Shown here piece after piece: positions 5,015 through 24,183 of a DNA stretch of 28,060 nucleotides (its first letter is position 1; every line of letters starts with the position of its first letter). The DNA is taken from the IMG/VR virus record IMGVR_UViG_2728369593_000002; one strand, written 5' to 3'. A program made the translations under genes and the position numbers. The DNA is from a virus (lineage: Duplodnaviria > Heunggongvirae > Uroviricota > Caudoviricetes). Below the pieces are notes generated by a model that saw nothing but the letters and a program-made list of their open reading frames with translations, was not told where the DNA came from and searched no databases.

Positions 5015-5527
5015 ATGACAACTCAAATTTCTGTTGAAACTCTCTCCCCGATCACCCATAACCAGATTCCTGTTATTACCACCGAACTTTTGGCGCAGCT
5101 TTACGGCACTGAGCCGGTGCGCATTCGCCAGAATCATCATGAGAACAAAGTACGCTTCGTTGAAGGGAAACACTTTTTCAAAGTTGTTGGTAATGACCTT
5201 AAAGAATTGCGGGTAGCTTTAAACTACTCACAAAATTTGCGGGTTACTTTAAGTAACTCACAAAATTTGCAACCATCTTTAAGAGGGTTACAAATTTCCC
5301 CGAAAGCCCGCTCCCTCATCCTCTGGACAGAACGCGGAGCAGCCCGTCATGCCAAAATGCTCGAAACCGATCAGGCGTGGGATGTGTTCGAAAAAGCTGG
5401 AAGACTGCTATTTCAGACAAAAAGGATCCGTCAGCGCCAGCTTCATGCCAGAAAAAGTTTACGACACGCGAGTTCTCTGTTATCAGCGAGGCGGTGTCAC
5501 TGTTTCCACAATTCAGTTGCGGGATGA
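5015..5527 (+). CDS. ORF6N/KilA-N-like DNA-binding domain protein (antirepressor-like moron); the C-terminus probably continues in ORF 5349..5630 after a frame break
   Basis: N-terminal region (ITTELLAQLYGTEPVRIRQNHHENKVRFVEGKHFFKV ... LILWTERGAARHAKMLE) resembles the ORF6N domain. The last 35 residues of this frame are Arg-rich and look out of frame. Confidence 0.55.
   Translation: MTTQISVETLSPITHNQIPVITTELLAQLYGTEPVRIRQNHHENKVRFVEGKHFFKVVGNDLKELRVALNYSQNLRVTLSNSQNLQPSLRGLQISPKARSLILWTERGAARHAKMLETDQAWDVFEKAGRLLFQTKRIRQRQLHARKSLRHASSLLSARRCHCFHNSVAG
5205..5294 (+). repeat. three tandem, progressively degenerate copies of a 30-bp unit inside the ORF6N gene
   Basis: aattgcgggtagctttaaactactcacaaa / atttgcgggttactttaagtaactcacaaa / atttgcaaccatctttaagagggttacaaa; encodes LRVALNYSQN-LRVTLSNSQN-LQPSLRGLQI. 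Confidence 0.55.
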
Positions 5528-5725
5528 TGATATTGTTATTTCCCTTGAGTCATGGCTGGAACTGGCGAGAGCCAATGGTTGGTTTGTTGTTCGCAGAGAT
5601 AAACTGGTGGAAAGGCTGATGCAGCTTTAAAAAAGTTCTTGCAATTTTAGCCATAAACTGCTTCAATTTCGGTATGCTTCGCAAAGCTGTATCGCGAGGC
5701 GAACCAAGCGCATGCACTTTACCAG

Positions 5726-16719: not shown

Positions 16720-17865
16720 ATGGCACAGGGCTTGCCTGTATCAAACGTTGTTAATGTTGATGTGATCATGTCGCCGCGTGCAGCATCAGGGAGAAATTTT
16801 GGTGCATTACTCATTCTCGGCCCGTCCACAATCATTCCGGTAAGTGAGCGCATTCGTCGTTATTCTGCCGCGGAAGATATTGGAAAAGATTTTGGCGTGG
16901 AATCACCAGAATATAAAGCTGCGCAGGTGTTTTTCTCACAATCACCGAAACCTCAGGAGGTTTTTGTTGGTCGTTGGGTGAAAACGAAGGGAGACAGCGA
17001 ACAGGCCACGCCTGAGACGCTGGAGCAGGCTGTGAATGCCATACTCGATTATACTTCATGGTATGGGCTGGGGATTGCAGACGATGAAGATATTCCGGAT
17101 GCAGACTGGCTGAAAGTGGCTGCGGCGATCGAATCCTCTTCTGTAAGCCGTATTCTGGCGATTACGACAAGCGATGATAAATGCCTGCAGACTGCATCCA
17201 GCGATGATTTGGCATCAAAACTGAAAACCGCCGGATATTCACGCAGTTTTATTCAGTATTCATCGGGTAATAAATACGCTGCGTTATCTGCATTTGGCCG
17301 GGCATTCACGGTTAATTTCAATGGCAGTAATACCGCGATTACGCTCAAGTTTAAGCAGGAGCCGGGTGTCGGGTATGAAACACTGACAGTCAGCCAGGCA
17401 TCGGCACTTGATGCAAAAAACTGCAATGTGTTCGTGTACTATCAGAATGATACAGCTATCCTCCAGCAGGGAGTGATGGCTAACGGCGATTTCTTTGATG
17501 AACGCCACGGCCTGGACTGGTTACAGAATTATGTGCAGACCAACCTCTATAACCTGCTTTATACCAGCACCACGAAGGTTCCCCAGACTGAAGCCGGTAT
17601 TACCCGACTGTTATCAAATGTTGAAAAATCACTGGATCAGGCCGTTCAGAATGGACTGATTGCTCCGGGCGTATGGAACGGGGGCGACCTTGGCCAGTTG
17701 TCATCAGGTGACACGCTGCCCAAAGGTTATTACGTATACGCCCAGCCGCTGGATGAACAGGCACAATCAGAACGTGAAGCCCGTAAGGCTCCGGTGATTC
17801 AGGCTGCAATAAAACTTGCAGGCGCGGTTCATTACGCTGACGTACAGATTAACGTTGTTCGCTAA
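16720..17865 (+). CDS. contractile tail sheath protein (DUF3383-like)
   Basis: 381 aa immediately upstream of the tube gene. Family assignment is from memory. Confidence 0.65.
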
Positions 17866-17875
17866 GGGGAAGTGA

Positions 17876-18317
17876 ATGTCTACCTATTCTTTTATGGATG
17901 TCACTGCGACGCTGACCGGGCCGACCGGTTCGATTGACCTCGGGTACGGTTCTGCAAGTTCTGAAGAGGGGATTGGTGGTTGCGATGGGCGGTCCTAAAA
18001 ACACCATGACCATCGGTGCTGATGGTGAAGTGATGCACAGCCTCCATGCAGATAAAAGCGGGACGATTACCGTTAACCTTCTGAAGACATCACCGACAAA
18101 TAAAAAATTGTCGCTGGCGTATAACGCACAGAGCCAGTCTTCTGCCACATGGGGGAATAACGTTATCGTGATCCGCAACAAGGTCAGCGGCGACATCATC
18201 ACGGCACGCAGTGTTGCGTTCCAGAAACAACCGGATAATGCCAACGCTAAAACCGGTAATACGATGCCGTGGGTGTTTGACTGCGGCAAGATTGACCAGT
18301 TTCTCGGGGAGTTTTAA
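17876..18317 (+). pseudogene. tail tube protein (DUF3277-like) with a +1 frame break near 17975-17976; may be real or a sequencing error
   Basis: ATG 17876 with GGGGAAG Shine-Dalgarno gives MSTYSFMDVTATLTGPTGSIDLGYGSASSEEGI, then stops after 7 more codons. The next frame continues VVAMGGPKNTMTIGADGEVMHSLHADKSG to 18317. Deleting one G in GATTGGTGG joins them into about 146 aa. Confidence 0.6.
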
Positions 18318-18320
18318 TAC

Positions 18321-18773
18321 ATGGAATTCGAAATCAAAGGCGTGAAATATCGCGTGGCAAAACTCAGCGTTTTTGACCAGCTGAAAGTGACCCGCAAACT
18401 TCTGCCGGTGCTGGCAGGAATGATGTCAGATTTCGGGAGCATTCGCTCCCGTTTGCCTGCTGACGGCAAAATCGACACCGTGAAATTCGAGCAGTTAAAA
18501 CCGGTGTTTGAAACCATGCTCCCGCGTATCGCTGAGGAACTGTCTTCCCTGACCGAAGATGACACCGATGCGATTATTCACCCCTGTCTTGCGGTGGTAT
18601 CGCGGCGTCATATGGACGGATGGGTGCCGGTATTTACCCGGGGCGAACTGATGTTTGATGATATTGACCTGCTGGTCATGCTTCATCTGGTGGCGCGGGT
18701 GGTCGCCGATTCGCTGGGAAATTTTTTGCCTACGCCCCTTACCAGCACGACGCAGAGCCTGCAACAGGGCTGA
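18321..18773 (+). CDS. tail assembly chaperone (lambda gpG analogue)
   Basis: 150 aa between tube and tape measure genes; slippery heptamers near the 3' end. Confidence 0.65.
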   Translation: MEFEIKGVKYRVAKLSVFDQLKVTRKLLPVLAGMMSDFGSIRSRLPADGKIDTVKFEQLKPVFETMLPRIAEELSSLTEDDTDAIIHPCLAVVSRRHMDGWVPVFTRGELMFDDIDLLVMLHLVARVVADSLGNFLPTPLTSTTQSLQQG

Positions 18774-18961
18774 CGTTTAACAGCCTGCCGGACGGGCTGT
18801 CCTACCTTCTCAATCCGGTTGACGCCGGGTTAATTCCTTATACAGCACTTAAAGATGGCTCTGTCGATTTGTACGACATTGCTCTCTTGAATGACCATCT
18901 GGCGGTAAAAGCGGATAACCAGCGGCGCATTGAGAAATGGAGAGAGGATAATGAACGCTGA
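18321..18961 (+). CDS. tail assembly chaperone -1 frameshift fusion product (gpGT analogue)
   Basis: A AAT TTT / T TTT TTG slippery heptamers (18719-18728) in the zero frame. The -1 frame is open from there to TGA at 18959-18961 with no start codon of its own. Confidence 0.5.
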
Positions 18962-18999
18962 AACTATTAAAGATTTCCTCGGTCTCGCTTGGCTTCAGT

Positions 19000-20958
19000 G
19001 TGGATGATGCAGGAGCGAAAAAGTTCGGTTCTGTCCTCGCCGGTACAACTGCAAATGTCATCAAAATGGGGCTGGCTGTTGAAGGAGCTGCGCTGTCCGT
19101 GGTGGCCTTCACGGCTAAGATCGCCTCTGGTCTGGATAATCTTTACTGGGCGTCACAGCGCACCGGCGCGACAGTCCAGGGAATTCAGTCTATTGGCTAT
19201 GCGGTTTCGCAGGTTGGCGGCAGCGTGGACGCTGCGCGATCTTCTCTGGAAAGCCTCTCCCGGTTTATTCGTAACAATCCCGGTGCAGAAGGCTTTCTGA
19301 ATCGCCTGGGCGTACAGACCCGTGATGCCAGCGGTAACATGCGTGACATGGCCGCTATCTTTACGGGCGTTGGACAGAAACTCAGCAGCATGCCGTATTA
19401 CCGGGCTAACCAGTATGCGCAGATGCTGGGCATTGACGAAAATACCCTGATGGCTATGCGTCGCGGAGTGGGGCAGTTCAGCGCTCAGTATTCAGAAATG
19501 GTGAAAGCGATCGGATTTAATGCCGATCAGGCTGCCTTATCGTCAAACCGGTTTATGACCTCGCTGAAATCGCTCGGTGAAATGGCCGGGATGGCGCGGG
19601 ACAAAATCGGATCGAATCTTGCGGACGGACTGGCGGGGCAGATTGATAACCTGCGCAAAAAGATAATTGAAAATTTTCCCAAAATTGAAGTCACCATCAC
19701 AAAGGTCATAAAGGGGATCCTCTGGCTGGGTGAGATAGTCGGGCGGGTAGCATTTCGGATAGTCGATGGTGTCGGAGATATCATCGAGTGGTGGGGGAAA
19801 CTGGATGCCGAAACGAAAACCCTGATAGAGGTTATCGGCGGTCTGGTTGTCGCCATGCGGATACTTAACTCTACTTTCTGGATGTCACCTATAGGGCTGA
19901 TTACCGGTCTGATCGTGGCTCTCGGTCTCTTGTGGGAAGACTACAAAACATGGAAAGAAGGCGGTAACAGTCTTATCGACTGGGAAAAATGGCAACCGGC
20001 AATAGATAAAGCGAAGGATGCGATCACCTGGCTTCGTGATCACCTTCTGGAACTAAAAGATGGTGTTGGCGGCTGGCAAAATGCACTGGAAATCCTCGGT
20101 ACATTCATCGCGGGTGTCTGGGTATCCAGGGTTCTGGGGGCTTTCGGAAAAATATCAGGTTTACCGGTCCCACCCTGGCTTAAATTGTGGGCGCTTTACG
20201 CGGGCTATATTGTTAGTGACAGAGAAAATATTGCCGATAGCGCAAAATCTTCACTGAGGTATACGAAGCGAATTATCGGCGACACGCTGGCTGCTATTGG
20301 TATAAAAACAGATATCGGACGCAGGGATGTCAGTGAGGTCCGTGAATGGCCTGCGTGGATGGACTGGTTGCACGGGGGACCCGGTAAAGTTATCCGGCAG
20401 GGACAGAGTAACGGTGTAGTGCATGGCTCCAACGTCCAGCCCGACATCCCCGGCGGCGGCACTCTTGCTGATCGCAACAATAACCCCGGGAACATTCGCC
20501 CGGTGAGCGGTAAAGGGTTCCGGTTTTTCGAATCAGCGCTTGAGGGCTGGGAGGCGATGAAAAACCAGCTCATGCGTTACTTTACCGGGAAAACAACCGG
20601 ACGGGCATTACAGACTATTCAGGATATTGTCAGTACCTGGGCCCCGGCAGGTGATAACAACGATCCGAAAAAGTATGCACAGGATGTTGCGAAATGGATG
20701 GGAGTATCACCGAATGCAATATTGAATCTTACAGATCCCCGGACTATGGGAGCATTGATGCAGTCGATGGCGCGCAAAGAAGGTTATTCAAACTGGAACA
20801 GCCCGCTGGCGTATCAGGCCGCCGCTGGCAGCCTTAACCAGCAGACTGTTATAAATGTTCATGGAGTTAACAACCCTCAGGAGGCGGCTAATCTGATTGC
20901 TGACAAGCAGGGGGCTGTAAATGCCAGGGCGGTACAGCAATTGAAAGGGCCTGCGTGA
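19000..20958 (+). CDS. tail tape measure protein; true start may be ATG 18951 with a frame break near 18981
   Basis: 652 aa, helical, with a hydrophobic central segment, after the chaperone pair. The listed GTG at 19000 lacks a Shine-Dalgarno, whereas ATG 18951 has GGAGAGAGG upstream. Confidence 0.8.
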   Translation: MDDAGAKKFGSVLAGTTANVIKMGLAVEGAALSVVAFTAKIASGLDNLYWASQRTGATVQGIQSIGYAVSQVGGSVDAARSSLESLSRFIRNNPGAEGFLNRLGVQTRDASGNMRDMAAIFTGVGQKLSSMPYYRANQYAQMLGIDENTLMAMRRGVGQFSAQYSEMVKAIGFNADQAALSSNRFMTSLKSLGEMAGMARDKIGSNLADGLAGQIDNLRKKIIENFPKIEVTITKVIKGILWLGEIVGRVAFRIVDGVGDIIEWWGKLDAETKTLIEVIGGLVVAMRILNSTFWMSPIGLITGLIVALGLLWEDYKTWKEGGNSLIDWEKWQPAIDKAKDAITWLRDHLLELKDGVGGWQNALEILGTFIAGVWVSRVLGAFGKISGLPVPPWLKLWALYAGYIVSDRENIADSAKSSLRYTKRIIGDTLAAIGIKTDIGRRDVSEVREWPAWMDWLHGGPGKVIRQGQSNGVVHGSNVQPDIPGGGTLADRNNNPGNIRPVSGKGFRFFESALEGWEAMKNQLMRYFTGKTTGRALQTIQDIVSTWAPAGDNNDPKKYAQDVAKWMGVSPNAILNLTDPRTMGALMQSMARKEGYSNWNSPLAYQAAAGSLNQQTVINVHGVNNPQEAANLIADKQGAVNARAVQQLKGPA

Positions 20959-23312: not shown

Positions 23313-23352
23313 CTCTCTCATCTTGAATATGCGCTAATCTGTACATGTACAG
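23313..23352 (+). promoter_or_regulatory. candidate promoter (-35 TTGAAT 23313-23318; -10 TAATCT 23335-23340) with overlapping 14-bp perfect palindrome CTGTACATGTACAG (23339-23352) as putative operator
   Basis: Sigma-70-like hexamers with 16-bp spacer; the palindrome spans the -10/+1 region immediately upstream of the antitoxin Shine-Dalgarno. Confidence 0.45.
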
Positions 23353-23362
23353 AGAGGGTGCT

Positions 23363-23776
23363 ATGAAAACCATTACTTATACACAAATGCGTTCGGATTT
23401 ATCTGCCACGCTGGAATTGTTACGCTCAGGTGAGAGTGTAACGGTAACGCAACGGGGGAAGCCTGATACTGTTATCAGTGCAAAAACCGTTGATAAGGTG
23501 GTGTCTGGAAAAGAAATTAAGCCACAAAACAAAACGATAGATGCGCATCTTGCACAGTTAATTTCATCTAATTTATCCCCACAGGTAACGGAGGGAGTCA
23601 TGAAGTTTACTAAGCAATTAGATGTCCTTCTGCAGTCTGATGAGGCGCGCCAGGCAATGATGAAGGCTGCCAATGCTGCACTTGCCCTGCAGGGCGTATC
23701 AGAGTCATTTATTAAAGCTTTGCAACATACTCAGACTAAGCATGCGGAAATTATAAAAAAACTGGAAGATAAATAA
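23363..23776 (+). CDS. Phd/YefM-family antitoxin with long C-terminal extension (137 aa)
   Basis: N-terminus MKTITYTQMRSDLSATLELLRSGESVTVTQRGKPDTVI matches the Phd/YefM fold signature. GAGGG Shine-Dalgarno upstream; stop overlaps the Doc start (TAATG). Confidence 0.7.
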   Translation: MKTITYTQMRSDLSATLELLRSGESVTVTQRGKPDTVISAKTVDKVVSGKEIKPQNKTIDAHLAQLISSNLSPQVTEGVMKFTKQLDVLLQSDEARQAMMKAANAALALQGVSESFIKALQHTQTKHAEIIKKLEDK

Positions 23777-24183
23777 TGGCTGAGATTACGTTTCTTTCGG
23801 TTGATGAGGTTATTGCGATTCAGAAAAGTACGCTGCCGAACAGCGGGCAGCCTGATATAGGTAAGCTCGAAGGTGCCCTGAACAGGGTGCATAATCTGCA
23901 CATATATGAAGGCTGTGAGGATTTATTTAAATTTGCCGCTATGTATATGGTAGCAATAGCGAAGTCTCACGCTTTTAACGATGCCAACAAGCGAACAGCT
24001 TTCCAGGCCACCAGCATTTTCTTGCTAATGAATGGCTATGAACTTAACACCTCCATGGAGTTGGTGAAGTTGACTATCTTTGCTGCTACTGGAGAAGCTG
24101 ATTGTGATAATACTGCACTGGCACTAAAACTCTTGTCAGATTATAAGAATGAGCTGCTGGCAGACACGATTACTGGATACTGA
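23776..24183 (+). CDS. doc: Doc (death-on-curing) Fic-family toxin
   Basis: 135 aa with the Doc active-site motif HAFNDANKRTA; translationally coupled to the upstream Phd-like gene. Confidence 0.85.
   Translation: MAEITFLSVDEVIAIQKSTLPNSGQPDIGKLEGALNRVHNLHIYEGCEDLFKFAAMYMVAIAKSHAFNDANKRTAFQATSIFLLMNGYELNTSMELVKLTIFAATGEADCDNTALALKLLSDYKNELLADTITGY

Follow-up and report, generated by a model that had tools for sequence, protein, structure and literature searches.

Tail assembly chaperones that are made in a short and a long form by a -1 frameshift have been described in several kinds of tailed phage. In such G/GT-type pairs two proteins share one start, the long one is the minor product, and tail assembly requires both, while neither is found in virions. 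The chaperone of phage lambda contacts two partners, the tape-measure protein through its G part and the tube protein through its T part (PMC5009743). In phage P2, which has a contractile tail, the E/E+E' pair arises by a translational -1 frameshift at TTTTTTG, and downstream RNA structure is absent from this site both in P2 and in its relatives (PMC3091744). A conserved -1 shift, in this case associated with a GTTTTT motif, was described in 2025 for the chaperones of Pakpunavirus/Vandenendeviridae and Andersonviridae phages (PMC12846349).

We compared these systems with a 28,060-nt stretch of DNA, referred to here as the window, which covers the late genes of a SEN34/Brunovirus-like myovirus prophage of E. 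coli. Over the stretch that was queried, Escherichia phages vB_EcoM-689R2 and 606R2 are 98% identical to the window and Salmonella phage SEN34 is 76% identical, and related prophage DNA is present in 315 of 5426 complete E. coli genomes. The tail is of the contractile type, with a DUF3383 sheath gene (16720–17865) and a KPP10-type tube gene (17876–18317; KPP10_Orf10 family), the latter broken here by a homopolymer insertion. Next on the same plus strand come the gene for the short form of the chaperone ('G', 18321–18773) and the tape-measure gene, which starts at ATG 18951 and is itself followed by genes for a Dit-like baseplate protein, a plug and a hub. The order sheath, tube, chaperone, tape measure is also found in relatives, and the position of the chaperone gene between the tube and tape-measure genes is that of a G/GT-type pair.

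The short form is a 150-aa protein, ending at TGA 18771–18773, that matches Phage_TAC_15 (PF21822) over residues 6–138 with 106.3 bits (E = 2.1e-30), well above the gathering cut-off of 22 bits, and that also matches the phrog_1688 tail assembly chaperone family (E = 1e-64). At 16–18 codons 5' of its stop, where the chaperone frame reads CTG GGA AAT TTT TTG CCT, lies the slippery cassette GGGAAATTTTTTG (18716–18728, plus strand). Three overlapping in-frame heptamers of the form X XXY YYZ can be read within it: G GGA AAT (18716–18722), A AAT TTT (18719–18725) and T TTT TTG (18722–18728). The preliminary description of this DNA had named the second and third of these, and their coordinates are exact; it had not listed G GGA AAT, and the overlap is one of three heptamers rather than two. 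The 33 long plus-strand ORFs of the window contain 25 in-frame heptamers in 7687 codons (3.25 per 1000 codons), and the packing of three of them into the 13-nt cassette exceeds chance. There are only two other heptamers in the window at which the -1 frame passes the stop of its gene, and both are trivial cases: one lies in a gene that is broken by homopolymer insertions, and at the other the -1 frame merely runs up against the following gene, which starts at an ATG of its own.

The -1 frame is open from 18668 to a TGA at 18959–18961, which leaves 78 sense codons counted from 18725 and 77 counted from 18728. The earlier proposal that this frame runs for about 78 codons to 18961 without its own start therefore holds, as both ATG and GTG are absent, and the only TTG codons (18869 and 18887) fall within a conserved domain, DUF6889. 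The extension (the 'T' part, 18728–18961, plus strand; 77 codons and the TGA) thus overlaps the end of the short ORF, continues beyond its stop and has no start of its own, as in G/GT-type pairs, and would bring the fusion product to ~213 aa. The DUF6889 domain (Pfam PF21829) occupies 18836–18952 on the plus strand, corresponding to residues 38–76 of the 78-aa -1 peptide, with a score of 73.4 bits (E = 1.2e-20; gathering cut-off 23.9 bits), and the same peptide matches phrog_4364 (E = 1.9e-23). The final codons of the extension are overlapped on the plus strand by the ribosome-binding site GGAGAGAGGA and the ATG of the tape-measure gene (18939–18953), and the fusion would terminate 8 nt into that gene. 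Around the tape-measure start, the sequence AAATGGAGAGAGGA(T/A)AATGAACGCTGA varies at one base between the window and three phage relatives, and in relatives the tape-measure CDS is annotated from the ATG equivalent to 18951.

The closest characterized analogue of this locus is P2 E/E+E' rather than lambda G/GT, because the tail is contractile and P2 also uses TTTTTTG. Like P2, the prophage is that of a contractile-tailed temperate enterobacterial phage with the chaperone just upstream of the tape-measure gene, and the last part of its short ORF contains the identical T TTT TTG, with no RNA structure downstream. It differs from P2 in its protein families, which are Phage_TAC_15 and DUF6889, with no P2 gpE Pfam family among the Pfam matches; in the length of the short form, which is 150 aa compared with 91 in P2; and in the heptamer being embedded in two further overlapping heptamers. 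With lambda gpG/gpGT the locus would share the same logic of an abundant short form and a rare long form made by a -1 shift. The lambda slip site is G GGA AAG, which the upstream G GGA AAT resembles; however, the lambda tail is non-contractile, and the conserved site here, judged from the comparative data, is the T run and not the GGA AAT heptamer. The Pakpunavirus-type chaperones also come from myoviruses whose tail module is of the same type (E217/KPP10-like sheath, tube and hub families), and they too have a conserved open -1 frame past the chaperone gene and a poly-T slippery motif near its 3' end, but none is among the 40 phage records that match the predicted fusion (below), and they are at best distant relatives.

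True homologues of the window chaperone are found in Klebsiella phage Mulock (MN098327), which is 57% identical to the predicted fusion and carries the same GGGAAATTTTTTG cassette, and in the GC-rich Burkholderia phage Magia (NC_070954), which differs in having C CCT TTT at the homologous position. The GenBank entries of both phages give a two-piece joined CDS as a 'tape measure chaperone frameshift product', which is a predicted annotation. Our finding is an instance of known biology, the frameshift product already being annotated in Mulock and Magia, and the locus opens no new biological question.

The comparative set comprised 62 species-level Enterobacterales loci (45–85% protein identity) and 80 close viral contigs. 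Of the 62 diverse loci, 60 have T TTT TTN in frame at the site (55 with G in the last position, 4 with T and 1 with C), 13–18 codons ahead of the chaperone stop; one of the remaining two is a fragment at the end of a contig, and in the other the gene is interrupted. A -1 ORF of 75–82 codons encoding DUF6889 accompanies it in 58 of these 60, and the two truncated -1 ORFs include that of an Arsenophonus symbiont. All 80 close viral loci contain GGGAAATTTTTTG, and the -1 frame is intact in 76 of the 77 for which it is complete in the fetched sequence. A tblastn search with the predicted fusion against 50,697 phage records returned 40 matching records, at identities down to 30% and from hosts that include Klebsiella, Acinetobacter, Burkholderia, Bordetella, Ralstonia and others, and each of the 40 aligns in two pieces that correspond to two frames. 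The preliminary description had suggested an alignment with other chaperone pairs as a check, and this alignment finds the two-frame layout kept in relatives (60/62, 80/80 and 40/40). As expected of a G/GT-type system, the arrangement is retained in divergent relatives together with coding constraint in the -1 frame, and the G/GT-type frameshift first put forward for this gene is supported by its position, by its domain content and by strong comparative evidence.

Of the three heptamers, only T TTT TTN is universal among the relatives; 8 of the 60 loci lack A AAT TTT, as counted from their context strings. A synonymous-site test on 59 distinct relatives shows that the run is frozen at the nucleotide level, with Phe always encoded as TTT (59/59), Asn as AAT (53/53) and Leu as TTG (54/54). 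At an invariant Phe 23 codons upstream, which serves as a control, TTT and TTC are about equally frequent (entropy 0.99 bit). Synonymous constraint 5' of the run reaches only ~9 nt (CTG GGA). A Shine-Dalgarno-like stimulator upstream of the site was also considered and rejected, as this ~9-nt constraint is accounted for by the overlapping heptamers themselves.

The pattern of variation also changes frame at the run. Mean entropies at the three codon positions are 0.78, 0.57 and 1.35 upstream of the run, counted in the chaperone frame, and 0.92, 0.83 and 1.31 in the overlap, counted in the -1 frame, so that the codon position with the highest entropy becomes that of the -1 frame as soon as the run has been passed, even within the overlap. 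Purifying selection in the -1 frame is evident from the first codon past the run, including the part that overlaps the C-terminal tail of the chaperone; variation here is concentrated at third positions, also upstream of any internal Met, and after the run 98% of sequences have Arg as the second residue and 100% have Pro as the fourth. In four lineages (L032, L050, L054 and L058), a -1-frame TAG, TAA or TGA lies immediately 5' of the T run, and because of these stops the -1 frame has to be entered within the run. The stops on the 5' side and the purifying selection on the 3' side therefore bracket the point of entry to the T run, and, judged from these sequence patterns, T TTT TTG is most likely the conserved slip site.

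We conclude that the locus is very probably explained by programmed -1 ribosomal frameshifting of the kind known from phage tail assembly chaperones. Most ribosomes would translate 18321–18773 and release the 150-aa chaperone, while a minority would slip back by one nucleotide on T TTT TTG (18722–18728), with the P-site tRNA-Phe re-pairing from UUU to UUU and the A-site tRNA-Leu from UUG to UUU. The two heptamers that overlap this run, A AAT TTT and G GGA AAT, may also contribute in this lineage. Shifted ribosomes would read 77 further codons in the -1 frame, continue beyond the chaperone stop and terminate at 18959–18961, over the tape-measure start, to give a fusion of ~213 aa with DUF6889 at its C-terminus. 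Its junction is predicted to read …SLGNFLAYAPYQ… or …SLGNFFAYAPYQ…, and the junction peptide would be SLGNFLAYAPYQHDAEPATGLTFNSLPDGLSYLLNPVDAGLIPYTALK for a slip on T TTT TTG and …GNFFAYAP… for a slip on an upstream heptamer. If the lambda gpG/gpGT and P2 E/E+E' pairs are a guide, the N-terminal part common to both forms would coat the tape-measure protein and the rarer long form would recruit tail-tube subunits, so that tail polymerisation would start at a fixed stoichiometry; these roles of the N-terminal part and the extension are borrowed from the lambda model.

A search for stimulatory elements downstream of the site gave negative results. RNAalifold on 37 diverse sequences found no conserved structure (2 base pairs, -0.12 kcal/mol), the fold of the window sequence is no more stable than those of shuffled versions (z = -0.17), and an Rfam scan returned no match at E <= 1; the locus has neither the conserved hairpin or pseudoknot nor the Rfam element of structure-stimulated sites such as dnaX, IS elements and viral pseudoknot sites. 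The lack of a stimulatory element is also the case for lambda and P2. Because no stimulator was found, the efficiency of the shift is probably low, at a few percent. An AlphaFold2 model of the fusion (P0001, 42-row alignment) has a mean pLDDT of 44 and a pTM of 0.30, which is too poor to provide structural support. In the literature we found no experimental report of the fusion product for this prophage or its chaperone family and no paper on Phage_TAC_15 (PF21822) or DUF6889 (PF21829), and the papers on SEN34 and Mulock mention neither the chaperone nor a frameshift.

The two domains also occur together in single reading frames. A DUF6889 profile search against 1.84 billion representative proteins returned 339 clusters, most of which are fragments of 40–90 aa with ragged N-termini, and about 10 of the best 150 matches are proteins of 190–210 aa in which the domain is C-terminal. 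A further profile, built from the natural fusions, was scored against 8000 candidates and gave 8 matches. Two in-frame Phage_TAC_15-DUF6889 proteins, one from a Methylobacterium genome (L149) and one from a metagenome contig (L150), were examined at the DNA level. Both loci have a GC content of 62–65%, and neither contains a heptamer or a T or A run of 5 or more. The possibility that these fusions are T7 sequencing errors was ruled out for this reason. The natural-fusion junctions …NLGVFLGMERP… and …NLQPYLTRERF… align with the predicted window junction …SLGNFLAYAPY…, for which the consensus among relatives is …SLGNFLARTPR…. In L150 (2007–3094), the fused gene is directly preceded by a separate, diverged TAC_15-only gene, and from this gene arrangement the L150 phage would make its short and long forms from two genes, as an alternative to frameshifting. 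In L149 (2501–3100), the fused gene is placed after the tape-measure gene and not before it.

An extended form of the proposal, which we regard as doubtful, is that G GGA AAT TTT TTG is a selected 'multi-site' slip signal and that the family switches over evolution between recoding and the two-gene solution of L150. If the multi-site part were true, adjacent heptamers would each contribute, giving a higher or more robust long-to-short ratio without RNA structure, and there would be two junction isoforms, …GNFF… and …GNFL…. Synonymous constraint back to the GGA codon and the existence of natural fusions are compatible with the extended proposal, though they do not demonstrate it.

The quality of the window sequence bears directly on any claim about a change of frame. 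When the window is aligned to L148, a 98%-identical prophage in E. coli Z1323CEC0003, it contains isolated +1 homopolymer insertions at 5391, 5419, 5456, 5458, 7798, 14625, 14838, 17975, 18981 and 27567, a pattern that is typical of homopolymer sequencing errors. Those at 17975 and 18981 flank the chaperone gene, both less than 1 kb from the site, and are probable sequencing errors. At 17975 an extra G (GATTGGTGG in the window versus GATTGTGG in two aligned relatives) splits the tube gene into an ORF of 40 aa from ATG 17876 and one of 127 aa from TTG 17934 to 18317. The gene is 442 nt long in the window versus 441 nt in relatives, and the tube region of related phages, like that of the complete E. 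coli genomes that match best, is two bases shorter in the alignment than that of the window. This insertion is probably a sequencing error and would otherwise be an inactivating mutation. At 18981 an extra G (CTCGGTCTC in the window versus CTCGTCTC in three phage relatives) produces a stop 18 codons past the tape-measure ATG, and the long ORF resumes at GTG 19000 with the true N-terminus lost. With both neighboring genes broken, the frame change in the chaperone could therefore not be called biological from the window sequence alone. The T6 run is not among the insertions and relatives carry the identical run, which bears out the earlier judgment that the frame change is biological rather than an error. 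The locus makes a clean teaching example of a programmed shift with homopolymer errors a few hundred bases away. Apart from 17975 and 18981, the insertions lie in A, G or C runs, and those at 5391–5458 appear to break an ORF6N-domain gene (5015–5630).

Three other explanations were weighed against programmed frameshifting. DUF6889 (~54 aa) could be a separate small gene, translated from a non-canonical start (the CTG at ~18797 that RefSeq uses, or one of the two TTG codons) or by termination-reinitiation, with the heptamers incidental to a conserved Gly-Asn-Phe-Leu motif. Stand-alone DUF6889 proteins do exist in RefSeq and other sources, with lengths of 46, 50, 54, 58, 62, 63 and 78 aa and essentially the same sequence, and in roughly one half of the diverse loci the -1 frame contains an ATG 29 codons after the run, from which translation of a 50-aa protein is conceivable. 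These database copies, however, begin at six different positions that vary between records; RefSeq E. coli entries treat the extension as a CDS of its own, a 'DUF6889 family protein' of 54 aa with CTG as its first codon (L147 1231–1395; L148 16780–16944). Such scattered starts are gene-caller output of the kind expected where a real start is lacking, and they are no sign of a conserved start. The preliminary description had raised the question of homologues whose downstream frame has its own start, and what we find instead is a set of inconsistent stand-alone starts, with the L147 copy at CTG. In the window lineage both ATG and GTG are entirely absent from the -1 frame, and purifying selection in this frame begins well upstream of the candidate starts, within the overlap. 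Amino-acid conservation alone does not explain the frozen synonymous sites of the run, and natural in-frame TAC_15-DUF6889 fusions are known. We consider a separate gene very improbable.

The fusion could also be made by normal translation if RNA polymerase were to add one U on the T6 run in some transcripts. The shift site is indeed a homopolymer, the run is T7 in four lineages, and a genomic T7 variant yields exactly the fused 213-aa ORF (P0001, a near-identical fused protein from a Logan assembly). A second Logan-derived protein, P0003, comes from a T5 run and has a +1-shifted ORF of 152 aa; P0001 and P0003 seem to reflect length variants of the homopolymer or errors in it. Run variants of the T7/T5 kind in public assemblies are seen at L004 2400–2410 (Logan SRR23924998) and in protein P0003. 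Productive slippage by bacterial RNA polymerase usually needs runs of about 8–9 residues or more, and the runs here fall short of this, with T6 in the window, T6–T7 in relatives and T4 in Magia, where the homologous C CCT TTT is a classical tandem-slippage heptamer. The P2 analogue, which uses TTTTTTG, has likewise been described as a translational frameshift (PMC3091744), and we give transcriptional slippage little credence. The remaining explanation is that a sequencing error or a pseudogenising indel has interrupted a single ancestral chaperone-DUF6889 gene. The window does carry at least 10 +1 homopolymer insertions relative to the 98%-identical prophage, two of which break the adjoining tube and tape-measure genes, and T7 and T5 variants of the run appear in Logan assemblies. 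The T6 run or the two-frame layout is nevertheless common to 80/80 close viral loci, L147, 60/62 diverse loci and 40/40 phage records; because an error would not be shared across relatives, this explanation is effectively refuted and we assign it next to no probability.

The main value of a programmed frameshift at this locus lies in annotation. Both RefSeq E. coli records that were inspected in detail split the long form into a 'phage tail assembly chaperone' and a 'DUF6889 family protein', and the same product names appear in the best 15 of the 315 matching complete genomes. DUF6889 can now be described as the C-terminal ('T') domain that Phage_TAC_15 chaperones acquire through the frameshift. 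In some older records the same fragment is named 'NTP pyrophosphohydrolase', a name for which we saw no basis.

Two further features of the window lie downstream of the chaperone. The C-terminal third of the tape-measure ORF (19000–20958) matches the endolysin/transglycosylase phage families phrog_873 and phrog_7182, and the product is called 'lytic transglycosylase' in RefSeq, so a domain that degrades the cell wall appears to be part of the tape measure. Amid the baseplate genes, at 23345–24183, are a Phd/YefM-type antitoxin (143 aa, Pfam E = 2e-7) and, as its partner, a Fic/Doc-family toxin (135 aa, E = 1.5e-10). The alignment between the window and L148 is interrupted between 23282 and 24216, and the pair looks like an accessory insertion that is missing from L148.
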